From: Thermomicrobiales bacterium
GTDB lineage: Bacteria > Chloroflexota > Chloroflexia > Thermomicrobiales > CADCWN01
Assembly (NCBI GenBank): GCA_030446685.1
Contig: JAUJMV010000033.1
Coordinates: forward strand, 1 to 52,328
Reading direction: 5' to 3'
Length of the DNA stretch: 52,328 nt
Shown: positions 10,331 through 44,554 of the stretch, piece by piece
How the letters are laid out: the number at the start of each line of letters is the position of its first letter
Position numbering within the stretch: position 1 is the stretch's first letter
Made by a program: the position numbers and the translations under genes
Notes under the pieces: generated by a model
Databases searched by the model: none
What the model was told of the DNA's origin: nothing
Seen by the model: only the letters and a program-made list of their open reading frames with translations

Positions 10331-11799
10331 TTAGTCATCGCCCACCGCGGCGATCTGCCGTGCCTGGTCCGCCGCCTCGTCGCCGTCCCGGCGTTCGCCC
10401 GTCCCCGGCGGCGCGGCGATCAGGTCGTCGTGGAGGGCGCGCATGGCGCGGCCCTCGTCGCCGGCGGGGAGGACGCAGGAGATGTTCAACTCCGAGCCGC
10501 CCTGGGCGATCGCCAGGATGTTGCAGCCGTGGCGGCCGAGCGTGCCGAAGACGCGCCCGGCGACGCCGGGGCTGCCGCGCATCCCCGCGCCGACCACTGC
10601 CAGGATGCAGACCTCGCGCTCAACGCTGACGGAGGAGAGCTCGCCGCGCGCCAGTTCGTCGGCGAACTCCCCTCCAGCGCCACCCGCAGCCGCTCGCCCG
10701 CCTCGGCCGGGACGACGAAGCAGACGTTGTGCTCGGACGACGACTGCGACATCAGGAGGATGTTGGCGTCGCAGGCGGCGAGGACGGCGCAGGCCCGCGC
10801 GACGATCTTCGGCCCGCCGACCAGCCCGGCCCCTCGACCGTGACCATGACGGCGCGGCCGATCGAGGTGATGGCGCGCACCGCGCCGCGCACCGGCGGGG
10901 CGTAGGATTCGATGCGGGTGCCGGGGAAGGCTGGCTCGAAGGTGTTGAGGATGCGGATCGGGATGTCCTTGGCGGCGGCGGGGAGGATCGTGCGCGGATG
11001 GATCACCTTCGCGCCGAAGTAGGAGAGTTCCGCCGCCTCGGCGTAGCTGAGCGCCGGGAGGGGGCGGGCGTCGGGGACGAGGCGGGGGTCGGCGGTGAGG
11101 ACGCCGTTGACGTCGGTCCAGATCCAGACCTCGTCCGCGTCGAGGGCGTGCCCGAGGATGCTGGCGGAGAAGTCGGAGCCGCCCCGCCCGAGGGTCGTCG
11201 TCGCGCCGTCCGGGGTGGCGCCGACGAAGCCGCCGAGGACCGGCACCGTCCCGGCGGCGAGGAGCGGGCGCAAGGCCGCCGCGGCGCGGTCGGTGGTGGC
11301 GGCGAGGTCGGGGTTGGCCGAGCCGAAGCGGTCGTCGGTGACGATCACGCGCTCGGCGGCGACCGCCTGGGCGGCGACGCCGCGCTCGCGCAGGACGCCG
11401 GCGAGGATCGGGATCAGGCAGCCCTCGCCCCAGCCGGCGACGCGGTCGAGGCTGCGGGGGCTGAGTTCGTCCAAGAGGGCCACGCCGGTGAGGCTGCGGC
11501 GGAGCTGCGCCAGCCGGGTCGCGACCTCGCGGTGGACCTCCTGCCGGGTGGCGGGGTCGTCGAGCGCGTCCTCGATCGCCGCGAAGTGCTGCTCGCGCAA
11601 GGCCCGCAGGGCGGCGCGCAACTCCCCGGCGCCCCTGGGCGGCGGCCTGGGCCGCCGCCAGCAGCCGGTCGGTCACCCCGCGCATCGCCGAGGCGACGAC
11701 GACGACCGGGCGGTCGCGGTGGGTCGCGACGATCGCGGCCGCCGCCCGCAGTTGCCGCCCGCCGCCCACCGACGTGCCGCCGAACTTCATGACCAGCAT
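10331..11799 (-). CDS. lysC: Aspartate kinase (frameshifted near ~11630, ~10830, ~10670; probably sequencing indels)
   Basis: MLVMKFGGTS, VVASAM, TTTLGRGGSDFSA, IWTDVNGVLTADPR, YFGAKVIHP and two ACT domains (SQSSSEHN; VGAGMRGSPGVAGRVF...AQGGSELN) spread over three frames. Confidence 0.92.
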
Positions 11800-11937
11800 C
11801 GTTCCCTCCGGGGAGGACTGAGTGCTGAGGACTGAGTGCGAAGTGAGAAGGACCGAAGAAGTAAGCAGAGCATCGCGGCGAAATCCTACTGCCCCGTTCT
11901 CATCACCCAGTCCTCATTCCTAAACCCTTCGCCCTCC

Positions 11938-11998: not shown

Positions 11999-12100
11999 CT
12001 ACGATGCCACACCGCAGCGCCCGCCCGGTCTCGCCGGTGGGCGCGTAATGGTAGTGGTGGTCATCGTCGTGGCCGCGACCAGCGGCATGCGCTTCTCCAT
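11999..12100 (-). CDS. Thr-rich leader peptide (thrL-like attenuator peptide)
   Basis: MEKRMPLVAATTMTTTTITRPPARPGGRCGVAS*: 7 Thr in 9 codons, lying between a promoter and a terminator upstream of lysC-asd-hom. Confidence 0.8.
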   Translation of the reverse strand: MEKRMPLVAATTMTTTTITRPPARPGGRCGVAS

Positions 12101-12107
12101 GCCCGCT

Positions 12108-12136
12108 ATCCTACCGGGCGATCGGGTTGCTGTCAA
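12108..12136 (-). promoter_or_regulatory. Sigma70 promoter of the thr leader/lysC operon
   Basis: TTGACA-N17-TAGGAT; the leader ATG begins 7 nt after the -10 box. Confidence 0.8.
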
Positions 12137-12204
12137 CCCCACGATGCCCCCCTGCTCGCGGCCGTGGCACGGTGACGGGTGCGCGACGTGGCGCGGGGCA
12201 GAAG

Positions 12205-12231
12205 CCGGGGGCGGGCCTCGCCCGCCCCCGG
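12205..12231 (-). terminator. GC hairpin, likely terminator of the CHRD gene
   Basis: CCGGGGGCGGGC-ctc-GCCCGCCCCCGG perfect 12-bp stem. Confidence 0.55.
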
Positions 12232-12264
12232 TGAGCGCTTCGTGGATGGAATGTGAGAGGTGGC

Positions 12265-12753
12265 TTATTTGATCTGGCCGCGCACCTCGCCGGCGGGATA
12301 GGCGTCGGTGTGGATGTTGGTGTAGGCGTTGCCGGATTCCAGCGCGGCGACCAGATCGCTGAGCGGCTTGCCGGCGAGGGGGCCGCGCAGGTCCGCCGCC
12401 GTGATGGTGCCCTCGGCGAGGATGCCGTGGACGGTGCCGGTGGTCGGGATCTCGTTGACCGGCTTGTCGAACAGGAAGGCGACCACCGGGCCGTTCTGGC
12501 CCGCGGGCGCCAGGTGGATGTGCGCGAAGCGGATGCGGTCGAGGTTGGAGACGATCAGCTTGTAGTGGAGCGTGGCGCCGTCGTCGCTGAACTTGAAGAT
12601 CGCCTGGGATTGGGCCTCGGTGTCGACCGCCGGCGTCTGCACTTCCTGATCGCCGGTGCCGTGCGCGGTGAAGTTGTTGTTCGCGGCGACGGCCGCGCCG
12701 ACGGTGACGAGCAGGGTGAGCAGCGAGAGGATGAATAGCCGGGCCAGGCGCAT
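12265..12753 (-). CDS. Secreted CHRD domain protein
   Basis: Signal peptide (MRLARLFILSLLTLLVTVGAAVAA); G.QEV, AHIH.APAGQNGPVV, GNAYTNIHT..YPAGEVRGQI. Confidence 0.92.
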   Translation of the reverse strand: MRLARLFILSLLTLLVTVGAAVAANNNFTAHGTGDQEVQTPAVDTEAQSQAIFKFSDDGATLHYKLIVSNLDRIRFAHIHLAPAGQNGPVVAFLFDKPVNEIPTTGTVHGILAEGTITAADLRGPLAGKPLSDLVAALESGNAYTNIHTDAYPAGEVRGQIK

Positions 12754-12977
12754 GGTCGCCTCCTCTTGGGTGTTCGAACAGCACGATGTCACGGCGACCA
12801 GATTCGACCGGTCGCCTGCTGGGATGATGAGCGCTCGATCGGGTATACGCCGTCAGCGGGGAATCGGATTGCTCTCAGGCGCACTCCTCCCCGCCCGCTG
12901 CCGTTGAGCCAGGTCCGGGAGGGTTGCATGAAGAGATCGGGCGCGAACCGGATCTTGCCGCCGCTGGTCCGCGACCC

Positions 12978-13481
12978 TTACCCGTCCGCGCGGGCGGTGT
13001 CGCGGCTGGCGCGCAGGTCCTTCGCGTGGCTGCGCTCGTGGTAGGCGATGATCTTGAAGATGCCCTCGACGGTGGTGTCGCCGGCGACGGGGTGGGCGGT
13101 GGGGCGGTCGAGGTCGGCGTCGGTCAGGCGGTCGAGCAGGGCCAGCGCCTGCCCGCGCGACTCCTCCAGCCGCGCCAGCAGTTGCTCGACGCTCTGCTCG
13201 CGGGCGCGGCGGATGCGGCCCTCGTTCCAGCGGTCGATGTCGAAGTCGGGCGTGTACCGGGGCGGCTGGCCCTCCATGGCCCCGGCGATCATCGGCAGCA
13301 TGCCCGCCTCGGCGTAGGCGACGTGGCCGATCAGATCCTTGGCGGTCCAGTGGCTCTCGTGGCCGACCCGCCGGTCCAGTTCCTCCGCGGTCAGCGCCCG
13401 CGCCGCCGCGAGGAACGTCTCCCGCGACGCCGCCAGCCGCTCGCGCAGCCGGGCCTTCCGCCCGCCTTCAGCCTCGATCAT
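12978..13481 (-). CDS. DinB family protein
   Basis: WTAKDLIGHV...HPVAG..TV...IAYHERSH, the His triad pattern of DinB_2. Confidence 0.85.
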   Translation of the reverse strand: MIEAEGGRKARLRERLAASRETFLAAARALTAEELDRRVGHESHWTAKDLIGHVAYAEAGMLPMIAGAMEGQPPRYTPDFDIDRWNEGRIRRAREQSVEQLLARLEESRGQALALLDRLTDADLDRPTAHPVAGDTTVEGIFKIIAYHERSHAKDLRASRDTARADG

Positions 13482-13637
13482 TGCCCCGTCCTCCCTTTCC
13501 TCGTGTGGGCCGTGGGCGGTGGGCCGCGGGCGTGGAGCGATGGCGGACGACGTGGAGGCGGCTTATCCCTCCGTTCGCCCCGCGCTCCCCCGGCACTCGG
13601 CGGCCCGCGGCCCACCGCCCACAACCCACCGCCCGCG

Positions 13638-14321
13638 TCACTCCGGCGCCGGCACCAGCCCCATCCGCACGGCGTAGACCGCGGCCTGGGTGCGGCTGAC
13701 GAGGCCGAGTTTGCTGAGGATCGCGCTGACGTAGACGCGCACGGTGCTGTCGCTCAGGTGCAGCTCGCGGGCGATCTCCTTGTTGCCGAGGCCGCGCGCG
13801 ATCAGGATCAGCACCTCGCGCTCGCGCGGGCTGAGCGCGCTGTCGCGCTCGGGTGCGCGCGGCGCGGCCATCTCCAGCACCAGCCGCTTGGCCGCGCGCG
13901 GGTCGAGGTGCGCCTCGCCGCGGTGCGCCGAGCGGACGGCGCGGATCACCTCGTCCGGTTCGGCGTCCTTCAGCAGGTAGCCGAGCGCGCCGGCCTTCAG
14001 CGCGCCGATGACGTGGTCCTCGTCCATGAAGGAGGTCAGGGCGATGATCTCGGTCTCACGCCGTTCGGCCTTGATCGCCGCCGTCGCGGCGATGCCGTCC
14101 AGTTCAGGCATCGCCAGATCCATCAGCACCACGTCCGGGGCCAGATCGCGCGCCAGTTGGACCGCCTCCTGGCCGTTGCGCGCCTCCCCGATCACAGTGA
14201 TGTCGTCGGTGATGTTGAGGTAGGAGCGCACGCCGTGCCGCACGATCGTGTGGTCGTCGGCGAGCAGCACGCGGATCGGCGGCTCGTGGGTGTCGGGCGC
14301 GGGCAGTTCTTCGATCGTCAT
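13638..14321 (-). CDS. NarL/LuxR-family response regulator
   Basis: LADDH, VLMDLAMPELDG, GYLLK receiver domain; LSPREREVL...GLGNKEIA...LSKLG HTH. Confidence 0.93.
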   Translation of the reverse strand: MTIEELPAPDTHEPPIRVLLADDHTIVRHGVRSYLNITDDITVIGEARNGQEAVQLARDLAPDVVLMDLAMPELDGIAATAAIKAERRETEIIALTSFMDEDHVIGALKAGALGYLLKDAEPDEVIRAVRSAHRGEAHLDPRAAKRLVLEMAAPRAPERDSALSPREREVLILIARGLGNKEIARELHLSDSTVRVYVSAILSKLGLVSRTQAAVYAVRMGLVPAPE

Positions 14322-14363
14322 GGTTGGTGCCTTCTTCGTGCCGTTGTCCGGTCGCCGGCGCGA

Positions 14364-15206
14364 TCAGGGCCGGGCCGGCGTCGCGGCCGTCCCCAGTTCG
14401 GCCCGGAAGCGCGCGAGCAGCGCGGGGAGATCGTCGAGGATGTAGTCGGGCGCGATCGGGCCGCGCTCGGCCTCCTCGCGGGTCGAGACGCCGGTCAGGA
14501 CCATGATCGTCGCGAGGCCGGCGTTGATGCCGCCGAGGATGTCGGTGTCGAGGCGGTCGCCGAGCATCGCGACCTCGTCCGCGCCGAGGCCGAGCCGCGC
14601 CAGGGCCTGCTCCATCATCGGCGTCTCCGGCTTGCCGAGTGCGACCGGGCGGCGGTCGGTCGCCACCTCCAGGGCGGCGATCAGCGCGCCGGCGCCCGGC
14701 ACCAGCCCCTCCTCGGTCGGCAGGGTCTTGTCGGTGTTGGTGGCGATCCAGTCGGCCCCGGCGCGGATCGCCAGGCAGGCGCGGCGCAGCTTCTCGTAGG
14801 TCACGGCCCAGTCGCCGCTGGAGATCACCACCTGGGGCGCGTCCTCGTCCCAGACGTAGCCGGTGCCGTCGAGCAGCAGGTCGCGCAGCGGCTCCATGCA
14901 GACGCCGGAGAGGCGCGTGCCGGGGGGGTAATGTTCGCGCAGGTAGGTGAGGGCGACGACGCCGGAGGTGAGGATCGCCTCGGGAGGCGCCTGCACGCCC
15001 ATCGCGGCGAGCTTGGTGGTGTAGCCGGCCGGCAGGGTGGTCGAGTTGTTGGTCAGCAGCAGGTAGCGGATGCCCTGGCGGTCGAGAAATTGGAAGAACT
15101 CGACCAGCCCCGGCAGCGGCTGGTTGCCGCGGTAGAGAACGCCGTCCATGTCCATGATCAGGCCGCGCAGGTCGCGCAGCGGGCGGGGGGTGCGGGGGCT
15201 CGTCAT
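14364..15206 (-). CDS. HAD-IIA hydrolase (NagD family)
   Basis: ATG at 15206 after GGAGG; MDMDGVLY, LTNNS, ATNTD, LGKPE, GDRLDTDI. Confidence 0.92.
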   Translation of the reverse strand: MTSPRTPRPLRDLRGLIMDMDGVLYRGNQPLPGLVEFFQFLDRQGIRYLLLTNNSTTLPAGYTTKLAAMGVQAPPEAILTSGVVALTYLREHYPPGTRLSGVCMEPLRDLLLDGTGYVWDEDAPQVVISSGDWAVTYEKLRRACLAIRAGADWIATNTDKTLPTEEGLVPGAGALIAALEVATDRRPVALGKPETPMMEQALARLGLGADEVAMLGDRLDTDILGGINAGLATIMVLTGVSTREEAERGPIAPDYILDDLPALLARFRAELGTAATPARP

Positions 15207-15380
15207 CCTTCCTCCAAGCGGTCGGGGCGCGGCACTGGCGCGGCGGGGCAAGCCCGGTCGCCGCCGGTAGCCTAGCACATCGGCGCGCGCGAGGGGAGTG
15301 GCCCCGGACCCCAACGTTGGGGGAGAGCCCCGCTGGATGCTGACAAGCAACCGATCGGAAAGGCGGCAGGAGGCGCGCGG

Positions 15381-16088
15381 TCAGTGTGGATCGAGGGGGC
15401 CGACGCCGTCGCCGGCCAGGAGCCCGATGCTGCCGGCGACCAACCCGTGCTCCCCGAGTGCGTACATCACGGTGATCGACGTGCCGGGCCGCGCGCCCTC
15501 CGGGGGCGGGCAGTCGCGTCCTTGCCCGCCGCCCTGCCCGGCCGGCGCGGTCGTCAGGGTCGTGCTGCGGTACTGCTCGCGGATGAGCGTGCCCCAATCG
15601 GGCGCGGTTCGGGCGGTGAGCGTGGCGTCCGCCGGCAGCAGCGGGGCGATCGCGGCGCGCGCCTCGTCGAGCGTGAGGGCGACCCCCTCGGCCAACTGGT
15701 AGTGGATGGCGCCGAGGATGCCGTCCGCGAAGCGCGCCTCGTACCGGCCCAGCGGGGCGTGGTACAGGGCGACCGTGATCGACCGCGGCGGATGCACGCC
15801 GCCGTTCGGCCTCGTGGACGTGGCGGCGATGGGCTGGCCGACGCGCGCCTCCCACCGCTCCCTGGTCAGCCCCAGCCCCGCCGATTGCAAGCGCGGGCAG
15901 GGTGTCGGCGTGGCAGCGCCCCCGGAGAGCGTTTGCCCCGGCAGGCCATTCAGCAGCACCAGCGCGACGGTAAGGGCGGCGATCAGAGCCGCGGAGGCGA
16001 CACCGAAGACGAGGTGACCTGTGCCCAGGCCGACCGGGCGCCAGCAGGCGCCTTGTCGCAGCTTGATCGCGCCACGCGATGATCGCAT
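15381..16088 (-). CDS. Hypothetical membrane-anchored/exported protein
   Basis: Hydrophobic stretch (LVFGVASAALIAALTVALVLL) followed by a Pro/Thr linker and a GLGLTR..WE domain; start uncertain. Confidence 0.6.
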   Translation of the reverse strand: MRSSRGAIKLRQGACWRPVGLGTGHLVFGVASAALIAALTVALVLLNGLPGQTLSGGAATPTPCPRLQSAGLGLTRERWEARVGQPIAATSTRPNGGVHPPRSITVALYHAPLGRYEARFADGILGAIHYQLAEGVALTLDEARAAIAPLLPADATLTARTAPDWGTLIREQYRSTTLTTAPAGQGGGQGRDCPPPEGARPGTSITVMYALGEHGLVAGSIGLLAGDGVGPLDPH

Positions 16089-16209
16089 TGCTCGCCTCTC
16101 GTCGCTCCTTTGCGATCGAAGGGGTGTGTGGAGTGGGCTGCCGCCGGTGGGTCCAAGGAAGGCCAACGACCGCAACAAACCGCTGGCTCGCGGGTCGGCC
16201 CCATAACGC

Positions 16210-16392
16210 TCAGATTTCTTCGCGTGGTAGAGGTGGCGTTGACCGCCGTGTCTCGGCAGGGCCGGAGGGTCGTCGCATCGCCCGCGCCGCGAGAAGCCAA
16301 GCGAGAAAGCCCAGCACGGCAAGCACGATGGTGATCATGATGATTAGGAGGATCAACAGGTGCCAGGGTTGGATCAGACCTAGACCGGGCAT
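16210..16392 (-). CDS. Small single-pass membrane protein with TatA-like N-terminus
   Basis: AAGGAG RBS; MPGLGLIQPWHLLILLIIMITIVLAVLGFLAWLL. Confidence 0.65.
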   Translation of the reverse strand: MPGLGLIQPWHLLILLIIMITIVLAVLGFLAWLLAARAMRRPSGPAETRRSTPPLPREEI

Positions 16393-16715
16393 CGCGTACT
16401 CCTTGCAGGGTGTCGACGGCCTCTCTTGGGTGGGAAGCCCCTAATGCTCGGTTCACGACTCGACGGCTGCCCGCAGGTGACTGCCGCCGCACCGCCGCCG
16501 CGATCGGCACCTTCGGCCAAGTTTACTTTGGTGGCGCTCCTTCCGGCCTGTCGGCGCGGTGGTCGGGGTGAGTCGCGTGAGGCCGATCGGGATGGCAGGC
16601 GGCGGCGGTGGTCCGTTATCGCCGCCCGGATCGCGTCGCGCACCGCCTGGTCGCTGCACCCGTATCGCCGCGCACGGTCGTTGGGCAGTCGGCGGAGCCC
16701 GCGGCAGCGGTACGC

Positions 16716-17701
16716 TCATTGCCGCACCGATTGTAACCGCACCGGCGGCACCAGGCGGCTCAGCCGGCGCACCTCGTCCCGACCCGTCCGGTGGGCGAGC
16801 GTGTCGAGGGTGTCGAGCGCCTCGCGCCGGTGCGCGTCGGCCACGACCCAGGTGTAGTGGAGGGCGCCGAGGTCGCGGATCGCCGCCAGCAGTCGCGCCT
16901 CATCCGCTGCGCCCGGTCGCGCCGACTGGCGGAACCACTCTTCGATGTGGGGAGGCCCTCGTCGCGGGCGCAGCGAGGGCGTAGGCGATGGGGAGCGTCT
17001 TCTTCCCGCGCCGCAGATCGCTGCCGCGGCTGGCGCTGTCCGGATCGACGCCGGCGAGATCGTTCAGGAGTTGGGCGACCACGCCGACATGGCGACCGAA
17101 GTCGCCCACCAGTTCGAGGATCGCCGGGTCGTCCACGGCCACGGCGGCGCCCACCTGGCAGGCCATCGCCGCCAGCGATCCCGCCTTGCGGCGGGTCATC
17201 TCGTGCGCCTGCTCCTCGCTGACCGCCGCCTGCGTCTCGAAGAGGAGGTCGAGGTCTTCGCCGTTGCAGGCGGCCAGGTAGCCTCGCGCGCAGAGATCCG
17301 CGATCCGGCGCGCGCGCCGGGGCGAGGCGTTCGCCCGCCCGCGCCGCGCAACCCTGCGCCAGCCAGGGCAGGGCGAGGGCGGCGTTGCGCGCGCCCCGGC
17401 GAGGTCGCGGTGTCGTCCCACTCGTCGTCCACCAGGTCATCGACGACATCGGCCGCCGCGACCGCGAACTCGACCGCCGCCGCCGCCGCGATCCCGGCCT
17501 CCCGATCGCCGCCGAACGCCGCGCAGGGGTCGAGCACGAGGGCGGGCCATTTGGCGGCCGTGTGCGCCTGGGGGCGAGCACCCGGCCCGGCCGCGCCAGC
17601 AGCCGGAGCAGCAGTTCCCCGAAGGCCGGGGTGTCGGTGGCACGCAGAATCGCCGCCCGCACCCGGGCGGCGACCTGTGGGACTGCCGTGTCCGCTTCCA
17701 T
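16716..17701 (-). CDS. ComQ-like isoprenyl transferase (polyprenyl synthetase fold), several frameshifts
   Basis: Pieced across frames: AAAVEFAVAAADVVDDLVDDE (FARM), GEDLDL, RKAGSL..MAC..GA, AQLLNDL (pseudo-SARM), SDLRRGKKTLPIAY, IRDLGALHYTWVVA; TGA at 16716. Confidence 0.8.
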
Positions 17702-17719
17702 CCGGGCAGCCCGTCGCGA

Positions 17720-17953
17720 TCAGGCGCCCGGCTGCGGCCGCGGCGCCGACGTCCACATGTCCGCGCCGCTCGCGGGAACCAGCCTGCCGAGATCGCCGCC
17801 GGCGTCCAGGAGGCGCCGGCGCAGATCCCCGAGCGCCGCGCGTTCGGCCGGTGACAGTGGCCCCACCGTGGCGGCGTCCGCTTGGCGCGTCCCCGACGCG
17901 CCCCCGCGCCGCGCGAGATCCCGCACCTGTGCATGAAGTTCGGAAAGGTTCAC
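17720..17953 (-). CDS. Small peptide, candidate ComX-like prenylation substrate
   Basis: AAGGAGGG RBS 8 nt before GTG at 17953; 77 aa VNLSELHAQVRDL...LSPAERAALGDL...GADMWTSAPRPQPGA with a single Trp; ends 18 nt before the ComQ-like ATG. Confidence 0.65.
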   Translation of the reverse strand: MNLSELHAQVRDLARRGGASGTRQADAATVGPLSPAERAALGDLRRRLLDAGGDLGRLVPASGADMWTSAPRPQPGA

Positions 17954-18157
17954 CCTGTGGCCCTCCTTCCGGCGTTCCCGACCGTTGTGCGTGCCGACTC
18001 CCGGTAATCCTACTACGAAGGGGCGCCGCGCGACACTACGGAAAACCGTAGGATGCGGGGGCCGGAGAGCGACGGATTGGCGCTGGATTGCCGGCCTCCG
18101 GGACGCGCCGAGGCCGGCGCGAGGCACGACCCGCGCCGGCCCCGCGCGCTCCGTCGC

Positions 18158-18796
18158 TTAGTGCGCGGCCGTCCCGATCTGCGCGGCGGCCTGGCGGAGC
18201 GCCGCCAGGATCGTGGCGGGCGGCTGGGCGCCCGAGAGGGCCAACGCGCCGCCGACGATGAAGAGCGGCACCCCGCTGACACCCTGCTGTCTCGCCCAGG
18301 TCGCTGCCTCGATCACCTCGTCGCGCGTGGCGTCGCCGCGCAGGAGTTCGGCGATCGGCTCGCGGTCCAGGCCGGCCGCGGCGGCGATGTCCGCCAGCAC
18401 GTCGACCCTGCCGATGTCGCGCCCCTCCTCGAAGTAGGCGCGGTGGATGCCGTCGAGGACCGCGTCCTGCCGGTCCTCGGGGACCAGCGCGAGCAGGCGG
18501 TGCGACGGGATCGAGCTGGGCGCGTACCGGATCTTGTCGAAGTTGAGGGTGACGCCGGCGGCGGTCCCGGCGCGGCGGACGTGCTCGAACATGGCGTCGA
18601 GCCCGTCGGCGCCCTTGTTGGCGGCCATGTAGGCACGGAAATCGAGCCCCTCGGGCGGAATCGCCTCGTTGAGCAGGAACGGGTGCCAGTGGACCGTCAC
18701 CGGCGGCCCGTCCCAGCCGGCCAGCGTGGTCGCCAGGTGCTGCTTGCCGATCCGGCACCAGGGGCAGACGGTGTCGTGGAAGACGTCGACGATCAT
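18158..18796 (-). CDS. DsbA family oxidoreductase (FrnE-like)
   Basis: DTVCPWCRIG, HPFLLN, AYFEEG, GVSGVPLF, GAQP. Confidence 0.92.
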   Translation of the reverse strand: MIVDVFHDTVCPWCRIGKQHLATTLAGWDGPPVTVHWHPFLLNEAIPPEGLDFRAYMAANKGADGLDAMFEHVRRAGTAAGVTLNFDKIRYAPSSIPSHRLLALVPEDRQDAVLDGIHRAYFEEGRDIGRVDVLADIAAAAGLDREPIAELLRGDATRDEVIEAATWARQQGVSGVPLFIVGGALALSGAQPPATILAALRQAAAQIGTAAH

Positions 18797-18865
18797 GGGC
18801 AACTCCTTCGCAGTGCGAGCCCGGCGCATCGCCCCATCGGGAAGTATAGCGGGCGGGCGGGCCGA

Positions 18866-20101
18866 TTACCGACGCCGGGCGGCGGGGTTGTCGCCGTCCC
18901 CGCCGTCGCCGTCGCGCCCGCCGGAGGCGGGGATCGCGGCCAGCGCGGGGCGGTCTTCGCGGATCCGGCGGGCCAGGTGGCGGACGATCCGGGCGGGCGT
19001 GACGACGCCGATCGCGGGCGCGCCGGCCGCCGGGTCGGCGACGACGAGCGCGCAGGCGTGCCGCCCGGCGGAGAGTTGCGCCAGCGCCGCGCCGAGGGGC
19101 AGATCCTCCGGGAGCGCCGGGACGCGGTCCAGCGGCAGCATCGCCTGACCGGCGGTGGTCAGGGGCCAGCGCGACCGCTTGACGGCGCGGATCTGGTCCA
19201 GGCCGAGGACGCCGACGACCCGGTCGCGGTCGTCCACCACCAGGCTCGGACCGCCCTCGTTGCGCTGCCCGAGCCCTTCCAGCACGTCGCCGACCGCCTC
19301 GTCGAGGCCGCGCGCGGCGGGGATGCGGGGCGGGCGCAGGAAGGCCGCCTCGCCGGTCGGGATCCGCTTGCCCAGCTCCCGCCAGAGGAGGTCGCGGTAG
19401 CCGCGCCGCGCTTCGAGGCGCAGGAACCAGCCGCAGAGGACGAAGCCGGCCCCCCACAGCGGGCGCGCGTTCAGCCCCAGCAGCGCCCCGCCGCCGATCA
19501 GGCACCAGCCCAGACCCTGGCCGTAGAGCGAGGCGAGCCGGGTGGCGGCCAGCAGGTCGTCGGTGATGTACCAGAGGAGGGCGCGGAGGATGCGCCCGCC
19601 GTCGAGCGGGTAGCCGGGCAGGATGGCGAGGAGGGCGATCACGCCGTTCGCCAGCGCCAGCAGTTGCAGGACCAGCGCGCCGATCCCGCCGGCCCCGCGC
19701 GCCGCCCACCAGAGGCCGCCGAAGACCGCCGCCAGGCCGCCGCTGACGAGCGGGCCGGCAGTCCCGATCAGCGCCTCGCCGCGCGGGGAGAGGGCTTCGG
19801 CGTCGATCTCGACCGTGCCCCCGAAGAAGAACATCGTGATCCGCCGCACCGGCAGCGCGCAGCGGCGGGCGACGACGGCGTGGGCCAATTCGTGGAGCAG
19901 GACCGAGCCGAAGAGGCCGAGGGCGACGACCAGGCCGCCGAGGTAGAGGCGGAGGCGCGCGCCGTCGGACGGCGCGCCGACCAGGCCGGGCGGCGTCCCC
20001 CCGCCGACGGTGACGACGACGATCGCGATCGCCAGGAGCCAGCTCGGGTGGATTGTCAGCGGGATGCCGCAGAGGCGCGGCCCGCGCACCGAGCGCGCCA
20101 C
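18866..20101 (-). CDS. Site-2 protease (M50) with degenerate CBS pair
   Basis: IHPSW, HELAH, FFFGG, AGPLVS, PGYPLDGGRILRA; C-terminal VVDD...VGVL CBS-like region. Confidence 0.9.
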   Translation of the reverse strand: MARSVRGPRLCGIPLTIHPSWLLAIAIVVVTVGGGTPPGLVGAPSDGARLRLYLGGLVVALGLFGSVLLHELAHAVVARRCALPVRRITMFFFGGTVEIDAEALSPRGEALIGTAGPLVSGGLAAVFGGLWWAARGAGGIGALVLQLLALANGVIALLAILPGYPLDGGRILRALLWYITDDLLAATRLASLYGQGLGWCLIGGGALLGLNARPLWGAGFVLCGWFLRLEARRGYRDLLWRELGKRIPTGEAAFLRPPRIPAARGLDEAVGDVLEGLGQRNEGGPSLVVDDRDRVVGVLGLDQIRAVKRSRWPLTTAGQAMLPLDRVPALPEDLPLGAALAQLSAGRHACALVVADPAAGAPAIGVVTPARIVRHLARRIREDRPALAAIPASGGRDGDGGDGDNPAARRR

Positions 20102-20117
20102 GGTGACCTCGGGGGGC

Positions 20118-20224
20118 GAGTCGGGTAGTCGGGTAGTCGGCGAGTCGGCTAGAGGACGAAGGTCTCGCGAGCAGCCGCCCGGCTCGTCCGCGCCGACTAC
20201 CCGACTACCCGACTACCCGACTCG
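20118..20224. repeat. Inverted pair of short tandem 8-mer repeats (same unit as 4180-4283)
   Basis: gagtcgggtagtcgggtagtcggcgagtcgg versus ccgactacccgactacccgactacccgactcg. Confidence 0.75.
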
Positions 20225-20512
20225 TCAGAGGCGCTCGTAGCTTTCGAGATCGAGGACGAAGATGGTGGCGCCGGCGACCTGGACCGTGGGGCCGCCCTCG
20301 CTGCGCTGCGACCGGCTGTGCGTCTTCTGGCGGATGATGTCGATGACCACGTCCACCTGCGGGTCCTCGACGCCGATCATCATCGTGGTATGGCCGCGCC
20401 GCAGGAAGCCGCCGGTCGAGGCGAGGCGCGTCGTGCGGAACTCCACCTCCAGCAGGGCGTCGACCACGTCGTTCGCGTCATCGTTCTGCACGACAGCGAT
20501 AATCAGCTTCAT
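20225..20512 (-). CDS. darA: Cyclic-di-AMP receptor DarA/PstA (PII-like, YaaQ/DUF970)
   Basis: MKLIIAVVQ.DDA..., TRLASTGGFL..G.TT, GATIFVLD. Confidence 0.88.
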   Translation of the reverse strand: MKLIIAVVQNDDANDVVDALLEVEFRTTRLASTGGFLRRGHTTMMIGVEDPQVDVVIDIIRQKTHSRSQRSEGGPTVQVAGATIFVLDLESYERL

Positions 20513-20818
20513 CGGCTCCCCTCATCCCCCATCACCGTCCAGGCCGGCCGCGCACCGAGCACCCGCGCGCAAGAACGCAACCAGGTCTTTCCAGGATGTC
20601 CCCCAGGCGGCAGTATAGGGGGCGCGGTTGGAGGCTGTCAAACGGCGGCGGGGCGGGGCCGGCGCGCAGGGCGCGCGCCGGCCGGCGGCGTGCGGTATTA
20701 TGCTACGCGCATCGCGCGATCGGCGCGCTGCCGGGGACGCCCGGATGCCGCGGCGGGTCGGTGCGACCGTTGCCGGCCCAGGGGTGGGCGCGTTGGCGGA
20801 TTCGGCGGCGAGAGGGTG

Positions 20819-22156
20819 ATGGGGGAGTTGCTGATCGGCCGTCCGGCGCTGGTGATCGCGTTCGCCGCGCCGGTGGCCCTCGATGTCGGGCTGGCGCTAT
20901 CGCTGATCTACCGCGCGCGGCTGGCCCGGCCGGGCTACGAGGCGTTCGATCGCTGGGTCGAGGAGACGGCCGCGCGGCTGGCGCCCGACTTCGTCGCGGA
21001 GCTGCGCCTGCTGCTCGGGTTCTCGGGGCGGCGGCTCTACTTCGCCGAGGAGCTGATGATCGCCGCGGCCTCGCACGACAGCCGCGAGGGGGCCGAGTTC
21101 GCCCCGGTGCTGGACCGGCTGGCGGCGCTCGACGCGGAGGAGTACCGGCAGATGGCGGTGCGCGCCGTCGAGCAGGTCTACACCGACGCGCACGAGGCGT
21201 TCGAGCGGCCGGACCTCCCCGGCGAGTCGCCGGGTGACGTGGCGACGCGCGCGTCCTGGGCGCGCTTCGTCGCGCCGGCGCTGACGAGCGCGGCGGTGGA
21301 GGAGGCGGTCGCGCTGCTGCTGGCGCCGGAGGAGTTGCGCCGCCGGACGCTGGCGCTGCTGACCCGCTTCTGGGAGGACTATTACGCCGCGGAGTGTGCG
21401 GCGCAGGCCCCCGTGCGGGAGGCGGCGGTGGCGCGCGGGCGGGCGGCGGGGTTCCGCGATCTGCCGCGCGCGTTCGCGGAGATGACCGGGATGCGCCTGC
21501 CGGACGAGTTGAGCGGCCGGCAGAGCCTCAACCGGATCGCGCGGGTGATCTTCTGCCCCACCGCGCACCTGGCCCGCTACCTGTCCTATGTCGCCTACCC
21601 GCCGGAGTTGATCGTCTTCTTCGACGCCCGGCGCTCGGTGGACGCCGCCCCCGCGGCAGGCGGGCCGTCGGTGGCGGCCCCGCCCGCCGGGCTGGCCCCG
21701 GCCGTCGGCGACGAGGCGCTGATCCGGGCGTTGCGGGCGCTCGGCGACGAGACACGGCTGCGGATCGTGCGGATGCTGGCGGAGGAGGAGCTGTACGCGC
21801 AGGAGATCGTCGGTCGGCTCGGCACGATCTCGCAGTCGGCGGTTTCGCGGCACCTGGGCGTGCTGGAGGAGGCGGGGGTGATCGGCGTGCGCCCGGCGCG
21901 CGGGGTGAAGTACTACGCGCTCGATCGCGCGTGGCTCGGGGCGCTCGGCCTGCGGCTGGCGGTTGGCGGATACGAGCGTGGTGGCGGGTGCGGATACGGG
22001 CGTAGAAGGAAGCGGCCGCCGTTCCCGCCGATCGCCGGCGCCTTCCCGCCTACCCGGCGCGAACTCGCTCGGGCGCGGCGGGTGCTGTGCTGGTGGCACA
22101 GGACGTGCTACAATTACTGCACGGACAGTCAGGGCAGTAAACCGATTGCGCGGTGA
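20819..22156 (+). CDS. ArsR-family regulator with long N-terminal domain (true stop may be ~22005 if frameshifted)
   Basis: C-terminal LRALGDETRLRIV...ISQSAVSRHL..L...G.I...YY winged HTH; the tail after ~21960 looks non-coding. Confidence 0.85.
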   Translation: MGELLIGRPALVIAFAAPVALDVGLALSLIYRARLARPGYEAFDRWVEETAARLAPDFVAELRLLLGFSGRRLYFAEELMIAAASHDSREGAEFAPVLDRLAALDAEEYRQMAVRAVEQVYTDAHEAFERPDLPGESPGDVATRASWARFVAPALTSAAVEEAVALLLAPEELRRRTLALLTRFWEDYYAAECAAQAPVREAAVARGRAAGFRDLPRAFAEMTGMRLPDELSGRQSLNRIARVIFCPTAHLARYLSYVAYPPELIVFFDARRSVDAAPAAGGPSVAAPPAGLAPAVGDEALIRALRALGDETRLRIVRMLAEEELYAQEIVGRLGTISQSAVSRHLGVLEEAGVIGVRPARGVKYYALDRAWLGALGLRLAVGGYERGGGCGYGRRRKRPPFPPIAGAFPPTRRELARARRVLCWWHRTCYNYCTDSQGSKPIAR

Positions 22157-42728: not shown

Positions 42729-42875
42729 GACCGTAGCAGAGACGACGCCCGGCGGCAAGCCGCGCTCCTCCAGCGTCCCGCCGCGCTATGACGGACGCGG
42801 GCGGGGCGCGAGGCCGCGAGCCGGGGCGGCGCCGGGCGACCATGCTTCGTGCAGGCGGCAGCGGAGAACGGGGCG

Positions 42876-44554
42876 ATGGCTGAAGTGGCGATGGCCGGGG
42901 CGCGGCCGGTGGGGGGCCGGGGGACGGTGCTGGCGGCGGCGGGGCTGATCCTGGTGCTGTTCCTGGTGTCCCTCGACCAGACGATCGTGGGGACCGCGAT
43001 GCCCCGGATCATCGCGGAGTTGCGCGGGTTCGAGCGCTACGCCTGGGTCACCACCGCCTACCTGCTGGCGGAGACGGCGGTGATCCCGATCGTCGGCAAG
43101 CTCGGCGACCTCTACGGGCGCAAGTGGATCACGATCGCCGGGGTCGCCGTCTTCCTGGTGGGGAGCGTGCTCTGCGGGGTGGCGACGGGGATGACGGGGC
43201 TGATCGTCTTCCGCGGCCTCCAGGGGCTGGGGGCGGGATGCTCCTGGCGACCGTCTTCACCCTGGTCGCGGATCTCTTCCCGGACCCGGCGAAGCGGGCG
43301 AAATATCAAGGGTTCTTCTTCGCGGTCTTCGCCCTTTCCAGCGTGATCGGCCCCTACCTGGGCGGGTGGATCACCGACACGATTAATTGGCGCTGGGTCT
43401 TCTTCGTCAACCTGCCGCTCGGCCTCTTCTCGCTGGCGGTCCTCCCCTTCGTGCTGCCGCAGAGCGCGCGGCGGCCGGGCGCGCGGATCGATTGGCTCGG
43501 GGCGCTCACCATCACCGTCGCGGTGGTGGCCCTGCTGCTGGCCCTCTCCTGGGTGGGCGAGGGGGACGCCTGGACGGCGGGGCGGGTCCTCGGCGGGTTC
43601 GCCGTCGCGGCGGTCTTCCTGGCGCTCTTCGTCCCGATCGAGCTGCGGGCGGCGGAGCCGGTGATCCCCTTCACACTCTTCCGCAATCGCGCGATCGCCG
43701 CCGCCGCGATCGTGCTCTTCATGGTCGGCATCGCGATGTTCGGCATCATCCTCTACACGCCGCTCTTCGTGCAGGGTGTGCTGGGGAGGACCGCGTCCGG
43801 GTCCGGCGCGGTGCTGACCCCGCTGGTGGTGACGATGACGGTGATGGGGATCATCGGCGGGCAACTGATCGCGCGGGTGCGGCGGATCAAGCCATTCATG
43901 CTCTTCGGCACGGTCGTGATGACGGCCGGCGTCCTGCTGCTGTCGACCCTCGGCCCCGGCTCCGGCGCCGGGACCGTCGCCCTCTTCCTCTTCGTCACCG
44001 GGATCGGGCTGGGGCTGATCCTGCCGACCTCGACCCTGGCGGTGCAGACGGCGGTGGGCCCGGAGCAGTTGGGCGTTGCCACCTCCGCCACGCAGTTTAT
44101 CCGCTCGGTCGGCGCGACGGTCGGCACGGCGGTGATCGGCACCCTGGTCACCGGGGGCTACGGCGACGCGCTGGTGGCGAGCATTCCGAGCGGCCTGCCC
44201 GAGGGGCTGGTCGCCGCGCTGCGCGATCCGCGCGTCCTGGTGAGCGAGGAGGCGTTGCAGGGCCTCACCGCCGCGACGGCCGCGCTCCCCGGCGGGGCGG
44301 GGGCGGTGCAGGGGCTGCTGGGGGCGGCGCGCGCGGCGCTCTCCGGCGCGATCCAGGACGGCTTCCGCTTCGTGCTCGTCGCGGGCGCCCTGGCGGTCGT
44401 CGGCACGCTGCTGATGCCGGACCTGCGCCTGGAGGAGAAGCCGGCCGCGGAGCCGGCGCCGGAGGCGACGCCGGCCGGCGGCTCGGCCGCCGCCGCGACC
44501 CTCACCACCGGCGCCACCGCGGTCCGCGCGCGGGGCGACGGCCCGGCGGACTGA
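42876..44554 (+). CDS. DHA2 (EmrB/QacA-type) MFS efflux transporter (frameshift ~43240)
   Basis: [46 protein letters not shown]. Confidence 0.92.

Follow-up and report, generated by a model that had tools for sequence, protein, structure and literature searches.

Gene pair at the locus

The window, by which we mean the whole stretch of DNA analysed here, comprises 52,328 nucleotides (contig C81, bases 1-52328) from the genome of a soil Thermomicrobiales bacterium of the phylum Chloroflexota (G000; 7.04 Mb in 111 contigs, 72.7% G+C, 84.9% complete). It contains two adjacent genes, one for a small peptide with a single tryptophan (Trp) and one for a protein predicted to prenylate peptide tryptophans in the manner of ComQ of Bacillus and StheQ of Sphaerobacter thermophilus, and these are considered here as the putative signal-producing half (X and Q) of a quorum-sensing system of the ComXQPA type. 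The features of the pair are as follows.

17953-17720, minus strand: precursor peptide gene (ComX/StheX analogue), GTG start at 17953, TGA at 17722-17720, 77 aa
17970-17961, minus strand: Shine-Dalgarno-like sequence GGAAGGAGGG, 7-8 nt ahead of the peptide GTG, read from the sequence
17701-16716, minus strand: ComQ/StheQ-like peptide tryptophan prenyltransferase gene (predicted; trans-isoprenyl diphosphate synthase (IPPS) fold), ATG at 17701, TGA at 16718-16716, 330 aa in its intact form
17450-17424, minus strand: first aspartate-rich motif (FARM) DVVDDLVDD, the prenyl-diphosphate/Mg2+ site, with D88 and D92 in the numbering of the intact form, P0012
17073-17056, minus strand: pseudo-second aspartate-rich motif (pseudo-SARM) QLLNDL, with Q212, N215 and D216 numbered as in StheQ

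The peptide has exactly one tryptophan, W67, which is 11th from the C-terminus and followed by a ten-residue tail (...GADMWTSAPRPQPGA), and exactly 18 nt separate its stop codon from the ATG of the enzyme gene at 17701. An earlier note on this DNA had described a 77-aa single-Trp peptide gene with a strong ribosome-binding site, the Trp 11th from the end, 18 nt ahead of a gene of the polyprenyl-synthase fold that has a FARM but reads QLLNDL where a second DDxxD would stand, in the order peptide then enzyme, the reverse of comQ-comX. Coordinates, motifs and translation agree with all of this, the X-Q order recurs at related loci, and it need only be added that every feature lies on the minus strand, which the note left unstated.

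Using a profile made from six peptides of other genomes, which had been found by eye and did not include that of the window, the window peptide was the sole match among the 97,730 six-frame open reading frames (ORFs) of the genome (E 7.1e-10, runner-up 0.3). W67, L6, V10 and R11 are invariant in all seven aligned peptides of the type found in the window (window type). The gene pair is real and conserved, and its peptide has the character of a ComX-like precursor, being small, encoded beside the enzyme and carrying a conserved Trp in its C-terminal part. A promoter and terminator scan of 16300-18400 returned no site of either kind.

The enzyme groups with ComQ and StheQ

The central piece of the window enzyme matches the polyprenyl synthetase family of Pfam (PF00348, E 1.2e-11), and the AlphaFold2 model of P0012 (mean predicted confidence, pLDDT, 94.8) has the IPPS fold, with a template modelling (TM) score of about 0.8 to polyprenyl synthases. 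Together with DVVDDLVDD, this gives the protein the first of the two hallmarks of the ComQ family. The second is the pseudo-SARM, an NDxxx with a Gln one helical turn ahead, as set out in the StheQ preprint (bioRxiv 10.64898/2026.08.29.745113) and in a review of ComQ; here and below, statements taken from the literature rest on the parts of these sources that were available to us. In an alignment of 63 window-type and StheQ-type enzymes the second aspartate-rich motif is replaced by NDxxx in all 63, no variation occurs at Q212, N215, D216, D88 or D92, and the conservation of K174 is at least 90%. Eight Bacillaceae ComQ sequences read QIDND[IL]DA at the same place. In StheQ, Q212, N215 and D216 are named as functional, and the six conserved residues listed above are ones tied to donor binding and catalysis (bioRxiv 10.64898/2026.08.29.745113).

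P0012 aligns with the ComQ of Anoxybacillus at 27% identity over 251 aa (E 1e-17). The phylogeny that the earlier note had proposed as a check was calculated from 61 rows, omitting 16 window-type rows by thinning and the long-branch row G253; the outgroup consisted of 15 synthases of related genomes, all of one order, and neither B. subtilis ComQ nor PalQ was among the rows. Bacillaceae ComQ, StheQ-type and window-type enzymes stand together, apart from the 15 ordinary synthases, with a support of 98/93 (ultrafast bootstrap / SH-aLRT, the Shimodaira-Hasegawa-like approximate likelihood ratio test). Each of the three groups is itself a clade (ComQ 100/100, StheQ type 100/99, window type 100/94), and window type and StheQ type come out as sister clades, their joining being weaker (90/58). 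Identity to P0012 is 39-63% within the window-type clade and 27-35% to the StheQ-type enzymes.

The names given to relatives would suggest something else. A search with the intact homologue from genome G072 returned at least 104 protein clusters, from soil, groundwater and Nitrolancea-type genomes, and all are named either 'polyprenyl synthetase family protein' or 'geranylgeranyl pyrophosphate synthase'. The closest solved folds to P0012 are also geranylgeranyl diphosphate (GGPP) and polyprenyl synthases, the fold search did not separate peptide prenyltransferases from synthases, and a search of a protein atlas gave generic polyprenyl-synthase clusters only. If these names were taken at face value, the enzyme would be an ordinary chain-elongating polyprenyl diphosphate synthase and the small ORF a chance frame in GC-rich DNA. 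Against this, the motif needed for condensation of isopentenyl diphosphate has become NDxxx in 63 of 63 enzymes, no NCBIfam synthase model comes near its cut-off (best 93.5 bits vs 450), the enzymes form a clade apart in the tree, the peptide is conserved with an invariant Trp, and housekeeping is served by the two other PF00348 genes of the genome. The idea is thus largely refuted.

A second possibility is raised by Ord1 (PDB 9v4g, 9v4h, 9v4i and 9v4j), which has the same fold and a similar pseudo-SARM logic and is described in the StheQ preprint as an indole, not a peptide, prenyltransferase; a peptide partner for Ord1 was not seen. Entries 9v4g, 9v4i and 9v4h are among both the sequence and the fold matches of P0012 (full-length match, E 2e-10; TMq 0.75), and the active site of StheQ is said in the preprint to be closer to that of Ord1 than to those of chain-elongating enzymes. 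The window enzyme might then prenylate a small-molecule indole, leaving the peptide with some other role. A tightly linked peptide with an invariant Trp is present at every locus, and StheQ is reported to modify the peptide encoded beside it and to bind that peptide in a stable complex (same preprint); in view of these points we regard an indole substrate as very improbable.

Frameshifts in the enzyme gene

As read in the window the enzyme gene is broken at five sites, lacking seven bases in all, each site falling in a C-run or a GC repeat, and the reading frame indicated by codon-position G+C jumps several times along the gene. The sites were placed by frameshift-aware alignment to P0012.

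17575, minus strand: site 1, one base missing in a run of five C
17387, minus strand: site 2, two bases missing in a GC dinucleotide repeat
17317, minus strand: site 3, two bases missing in a GC dinucleotide repeat
16977, minus strand: site 4, one base missing in CCC; extra G behind 16974 in contigs of 4/4 runs
16954, minus strand: site 5, one base missing in a run of four C; extra G behind 16948 in contigs of 4/4 runs

The earlier note had advised rebuilding the ORF. Its intact 330-aa form is represented by P0012, one of the clusters returned by the search with the G072 homologue, a protein from public run assemblies that equals the window frames, read through the five sites, at 323 of 330 positions; apart from the breaks only 2 residues differ. 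Over 12000-22000 the window was compared with contigs from four public runs, which belong to three studies, and among the indels listed the position of a correction is visible for two of the five sites. The contig designated X2 is exactly 7 letters longer than the window over 16698-17980 and keeps the same downstream neighbour.

The breaks could also be genuine, the gene in G000 being a real pseudogene that decayed by slippage in C-runs and GC repeats after its linkage to a kinase gene was lost. Five breaks within 1 kb is far above the rough average of the assembly, with none in the approximately 8 kb of rpoB and rpoC; the locus is the sole one among 13 that has no adjacent kinase; and the X1 contig over 16698-18871 is longer by 3 letters where 7 would be needed, so that some breaks seem to persist in it. 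Decay of this kind sits poorly with a protein that differs from intact P0012 at 2 residues once the breaks are set aside, with two breaks that are absent from the contigs of all four runs, and with the X2 contig that carries just the required seven letters. All of the breaks are moreover deletions in error-prone contexts, and housekeeping genes of the assembly are split too, both other PF00348 genes and one of four aldehyde dehydrogenases among the split genes. We therefore consider a pseudogene unlikely and errors of the assembly by far the more probable cause. The earlier note had counted about four frameshifts and suspected errors; the count becomes five, and its suspicion is the explanation that we favour. 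Whatever the cause of the breaks, an intact and nearly identical enzyme gene exists in nature.

Elsewhere in the window a major facilitator superfamily (MFS) transporter at 42849-44554 (plus strand) lies in two overlapping frames (Pfam MFS_1 positions 1-107 and 96-346), and an aspartokinase at 10331-11800 (minus strand) is in pieces, both being further signs of indel errors in the assembly.

Cassettes of the window type in other genomes

Twelve window-type loci were found outside G000 (G072, G541, G322, G401, G277, G253, L075, L076, L078, L079, L080 and L081), those with L numbers, together with ten Bacillaceae loci, coming from a scan of named genomes with a 17-row window-type alignment. The gene order at related loci is peptide, enzyme, ComP-like kinase and usually then a NarL-type regulator. 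The earlier note had asked for small Trp-containing ORFs beside homologues, and a homologous Trp peptide is indeed encoded directly upstream of the enzyme at all 11 loci that hold upstream sequence. Five of these eleven were found with the profile (E 7e-9 to 5e-15), with the Trp at the matching place in these as well, and six by eye. In 4 of 12 peptides the Trp is second from the end, while in the other 8, including that of the window, it is followed by 10-15 residues.

A kinase of approximately 770-790 aa follows the enzyme directly at 12/12 loci, two of the kinase genes being cut by contig ends and one lying in two frames. In it a first hydrophobic segment precedes a PDZ-like loop; about nine more segments come next, and then a GAF-like region, HisKA_3 and HATPase_c. 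Where there is enough sequence, a regulator with Response_reg and GerE domains comes after the kinase (8/10 loci). Upstream neighbours vary by locus, and no protease or exporter conserved beside the 12 cassettes was seen.

Two cassettes of the window type, L077 and L080, are in assemblies labelled Sphingomonadaceae and Pseudomonadota. The cassettes that match them best are from Chloroflexota, and this points to errors of binning or labelling and not to transfer.

Kinase and regulator in the same genome

As the earlier note had said, no ComP-like kinase lies beside the peptide-enzyme pair, and none was found anywhere in the window. The search of the rest of the genome that it proposed was successful, since a kinase and an adjoining regulator are present on another contig, C100.

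C100:37766-40111: ComP-like kinase, intact, 781 aa, best match of all cassette kinases tested
C100:40104-40763: NarL-type regulator, 219 aa, adjoining the kinase; the pair corresponds to L059:7767-10764
14321-13638 of the window, minus strand: NarL-type regulator, 2395 nt past the enzyme stop, lacking a neighbouring kinase

The C100 kinase is the best match of four out of four cassette kinases, at 44-56% identity over the full length, where the next-best matches cover the catalytic end only, and the C100 regulator is the best match of four out of four cassette regulators (49-56% identity). The kinase also aligns end to end with the ComP of Anoxybacillus (residues 31-776 vs 5-752, E 1e-33), and the regulator is homologous over its full length to the ComA of that locus. 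By a rough hydropathy scan the two kinases share a layout of a hydrophobic segment, a loop of about 90 residues and 8-9 segments.

G000 is the only one of the 13 loci in which the kinase is not adjacent. Assembly does not account for this separation of X-Q from P-A: the kinase pair lies in the middle of C100, and the enzyme gene is joined to its neighbour downstream by an independent contig. G000 shows that the half that makes the signal and the half that reads it need not be linked.

The NarL-type regulator within the window was considered as a partner and rejected, its identity to the cassette regulators being 34-40% as against 49-56% for the C100 regulator. The earlier note had placed this orphan about 2.4 kb downstream, in agreement with the distance of 2395 nt, and had linked it to the ComA family; judged by its sequence it is probably unrelated to the peptide system. 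The place of the relatives' kinase gene is occupied in the window by a 313-codon frame at 15381-16322 (minus strand), with one hydrophobic segment and no Pfam family.

StheQ-type loci and their receptors

The earlier note had mentioned, without being certain of it, a ComQ homologue from Sphaerobacter thermophilus. This is real, being StheQ, encoded with the peptide StheX in strain DSM 20745 (bioRxiv 10.64898/2026.08.29.745113). According to the preprint StheQ farnesylates the peptide Trp that is second from the C-terminus, its crystal structures contain a single Mg2+ at the FARM, and the authors call the biological role of StheQ/StheX unknown. Among our genomes the published pair is carried by G040, where D85, D89, D91, A167, K174, Q212, N215, D216, D219 and T267 all occur at the published numbers and the 69-aa peptide ends in GWWA, with WW at positions -3 and -2.

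Strong matches to the StheQ-type enzyme (E up to 1e-54) were found in 18 of 192 genomes of the order. At least 15 of the 17 full loci have an upstream peptide of approximately 66-69 aa with a leader resembling nitrile hydratase leader peptides (NHLP) and a Trp second or third from the end; at L037 and L041 the peptide filter picked up none, and no further look was taken there. The unpublished genomes G018, G034, G146, G173 and G174 enter tallies only, apart from G174, which also supplies one outgroup row of the tree, and no conclusion depends on them.

At 16 of the 17 loci the gene after the enzyme encodes the PDZ-like and multi-membrane sensor module that is also present in the ComP-like kinases, and at the 17th the contig ends. 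This module shares 26% identity over 562 residues with the kinase of G072 (E 1e-28). In all seven full-length proteins checked, of about 1110 aa, the output domains are not those of a kinase and consist of GAF, HD_5 (HD-GYP type), GAF and GGDEF. These receptors, each following a StheQ-type gene, are the following.

L021:6370-9711, minus strand: GGDEF-type receptor
L020:9021-12398, plus strand: GGDEF-type receptor
L022:9978-13316, plus strand: GGDEF-type receptor
L023:5714-9055, minus strand: GGDEF-type receptor
L019:1040-4375, minus strand: GGDEF-type receptor
L057:6623-9964, minus strand: GGDEF-type receptor
L058:7113-10442, minus strand: GGDEF-type receptor

In the StheQ-type branch the prenylated peptide may thus be read out as turnover of cyclic di-GMP (c-di-GMP). 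The words GGDEF, diguanylate and kinase do not occur in the main text of the preprint (bioRxiv 10.64898/2026.08.29.745113), as far as that text was available.

The window system and that of StheQ come from the same phylum and, by our kinship table, the same order. In both, a peptide gene adjoins that of an enzyme of the IPPS fold whose motifs are a FARM and an NDxxx pseudo-SARM, the residues Q212, N215, D216 and K174 and the FARM aspartates are conserved, and both peptides carry a conserved Trp (StheX 69 aa, window peptide 77 aa). They differ in that the enzymes fall into separate clades (100/94 vs 100/99) at 27-35% identity to P0012, that the leaders of window-type peptides match no family whereas those of StheX-type peptides are NHLP-like, that in the window type 1 or 10-15 residues come after the Trp, against a Trp second or third from the end in the StheX type, and that the GAF, HD-GYP, GAF, GGDEF receptor is replaced by a histidine kinase.

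Proposed interpretation as a quorum-sensing system

We propose that the peptide and enzyme genes of the window constitute X and Q, the half that produces the signal, in a Chloroflexota quorum-sensing system of the ComXQPA type, and would put the probability of this reading, made from sequence comparison, at roughly 75%. A close known parallel is the comQXPA locus of Bacillaceae. In a textbook example from Anoxybacillus mongoliensis (L085) ComQ has the motifs DLLDDVVD and QIDNDLDA, the peptide is 52 aa long and ends in RYWM, ComP matches PDZ weakly and has HisKA_3 and HATPase_c, and the regulator is ComA-like. All four components have counterparts in the Chloroflexota cassettes: the enzyme is ComQ-like with the same FARM and Q..ND, a small Trp peptide is present, the kinase aligns with ComP including the PDZ-like loop and the membrane block, and the regulator has Response_reg and GerE domains as ComA does. 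The cassettes differ from the Bacillaceae loci in their order, X-Q-P-A and not Q-X-P-A, in a longer peptide, in a GAF-like region added to the kinase, in the separation of X-Q from P-A in G000 and in their phylum, Chloroflexota; a census of 2014, in its available text, did not find comQXPA outside Firmicutes (PMC4008528).

For the window system itself we infer prenylation, export and sensing by analogy. The 77-aa peptide would be made on the ribosome as a precursor, and its N-terminal leader (MNLSELHAQVR..., LSPAERAAL...) would dock on the enzyme. The FARM would hold Mg2+ and farnesyl or geranyl diphosphate, and with the second motif changed to Q..ND the prenyl group would be transferred to C3 of W67 instead of to a growing isoprenoid chain, probably with closure of a pyrroloindoline ring at W67, as in the chemistry shown for StheQ and ComQ. 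The leader, and perhaps the ten-residue tail, would then be trimmed and the lipopeptide would leave the cell, steps for which no protease or exporter was identified. Outside the cell the peptide would be sensed by the ComP-like kinase through its membrane and PDZ-like module, and the kinase on C100 would in turn phosphorylate the NarL/LuxR-type regulator.

Several observations weigh against this interpretation. Tryptophan prenylation is known for StheQ, which is 27-35% identical to P0012, and for Bacillus ComQ only, the latter having been shown to attach a geranyl or farnesyl group at C3 of a Trp in a peptide (PMC5331326). The window peptide matches no family in Pfam or NCBIfam. Comparison of window-type peptides with six Bacillaceae ComX by hhalign was not significant (E 0.58), and the leaders of window-type and StheX-type peptides show only a weak likeness (probability 36%, E 3.7e-4). 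In the tree the outgroup comes from the same order only and Bacillaceae ComQ sits on a long branch (2.35). The unlinked arrangement in G000 means that the pairing of the C100 kinase with the window peptide would follow from orthology, as judged from sequence. The density of breaks in the enzyme gene and the length of the X1 contig, described above, count on the same side. Finally, the Trp is 11th from the C-terminus, as against at the end or within 4 residues of it for StheQ, PalQ and most ComQ. PalQ of Paenibacillus requires its Trp at the very C-terminus and loses activity when alanines are added (PMC10853753). A precedent for an internal Trp is nevertheless provided by ComXnatto, in which it is 20th from the end and the peptide is processed on both sides (PMC5331326).

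The earlier note had also likened the LSPAERAAL segment to the leader helix of ComX. This did not hold up: besides the hhalign result just given, the window peptide had no match to the Pfam ComX family (PF05952) at E up to 1, a comparison in which the Anoxybacillus peptide, as a positive control, scored E 1e-20. StheX-type peptides were likewise not significantly similar to ComX (hhalign E 0.15).

The pair might instead make a prenylated product of the class of peptides that are made on the ribosome and modified after translation (RiPPs), an antimicrobial or a surface-active lipopeptide, with the kinase and regulator serving only for autoregulation as in lantibiotic clusters. StheX-type precursors have NHLP-like leaders typical of RiPP natural products, with scores near the cut-offs of the NCBIfam models (StheX of G040, NF038399 37 bits vs 40, TIGR04509 30.7 vs 34; PF14407 below threshold), and PalQ/PalX of Paenibacillus alvei, an isoprene-synthase-fold enzyme beside a leader-bearing peptide in which the C3 of a Trp is prenylated, is described as a RiPP cluster (PMC10853753). 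The leader of the window peptide was not matched by NHLP-clan or Nif11-type RiPP precursor models, unlike PalX with its clear NHLP leader (PMC10853753; PalQ was compared by description only). Exporter, immunity and further tailoring genes are not conserved beside the 12 related cassettes, and the only conserved partners are the ComP-like kinase and the ComA-like regulator, as in the pheromone system of Bacillus. A RiPP product accordingly seems distinctly unlikely, and a quorum-sensing signal remains the explanation that we prefer.

A broader proposal would be that Chloroflexota carry widespread and complete X-Q-P-A prenyl-peptide quorum sensing, homologous component by component to ComQXPA of Bacillus, with the module made up of a membrane segment, an outward-facing PDZ-like loop and some nine more membrane segments as the prenyl-peptide sensor and with c-di-GMP turnover as the readout in the StheQ branch. 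On this we are evenly poised between acceptance and doubt. That the enzyme family occurs in Chloroflexi has been published already. In our literature search, which covered sources other than subscription journals, we found no account of the four-gene cassette or of how widely it occurs, of the receptor module, or of a c-di-GMP-type receptor or output in Chloroflexota.

Significance

Tryptophan prenylation of a peptide pheromone has long been held to be a speciality of Bacillus. If our interpretation is right, this signalling chemistry is not confined to Firmicutes. The preprint of August 2026 (bioRxiv 10.64898/2026.08.29.745113), in the parts available, put the enzyme and peptide in Chloroflexi, and the loci presented here add the missing half, a kinase and regulator linked to them in 12 loci. 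Peptide quorum sensing in a poorly studied but environmentally abundant phylum thereby becomes testable with four defined genes. If the c-di-GMP proposal is also true, turnover of c-di-GMP would be the direct readout of a lipopeptide, and in the literature searched no peptide pheromone is described as being wired in this way. Independently of signalling, the systematic misannotation of at least 104 enzyme clusters as polyprenyl or GGPP synthases is corrected, and enzymes that appear to accept an internal Trp are of interest for peptide lipidation.

Neighbouring genes and other observations

Just past the stop codon of the enzyme gene, at 16629-16698, the X1 and X2 contigs carry 15 other letters in place of 68, and the contigs of three runs are one base shorter than the window at 15364. 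Several contigs of the genome, C51 and C100 among them, are interrupted by runs of approximately 100 N, which may be scaffold gaps or withheld stretches. Directly upstream of the peptide gene and on the same strand (18158-20101, minus) are genes for a DsbA-like protein and for an M50 site-2 protease that matches CBS weakly; these neighbours are not kept at the other cassettes, and a role for them in processing of the peptide is only a thought. Further upstream, 20225-20512 (minus strand) encodes a protein of 95 aa with a match to the cyclic-di-AMP receptor family (PF06153, E 2e-30).

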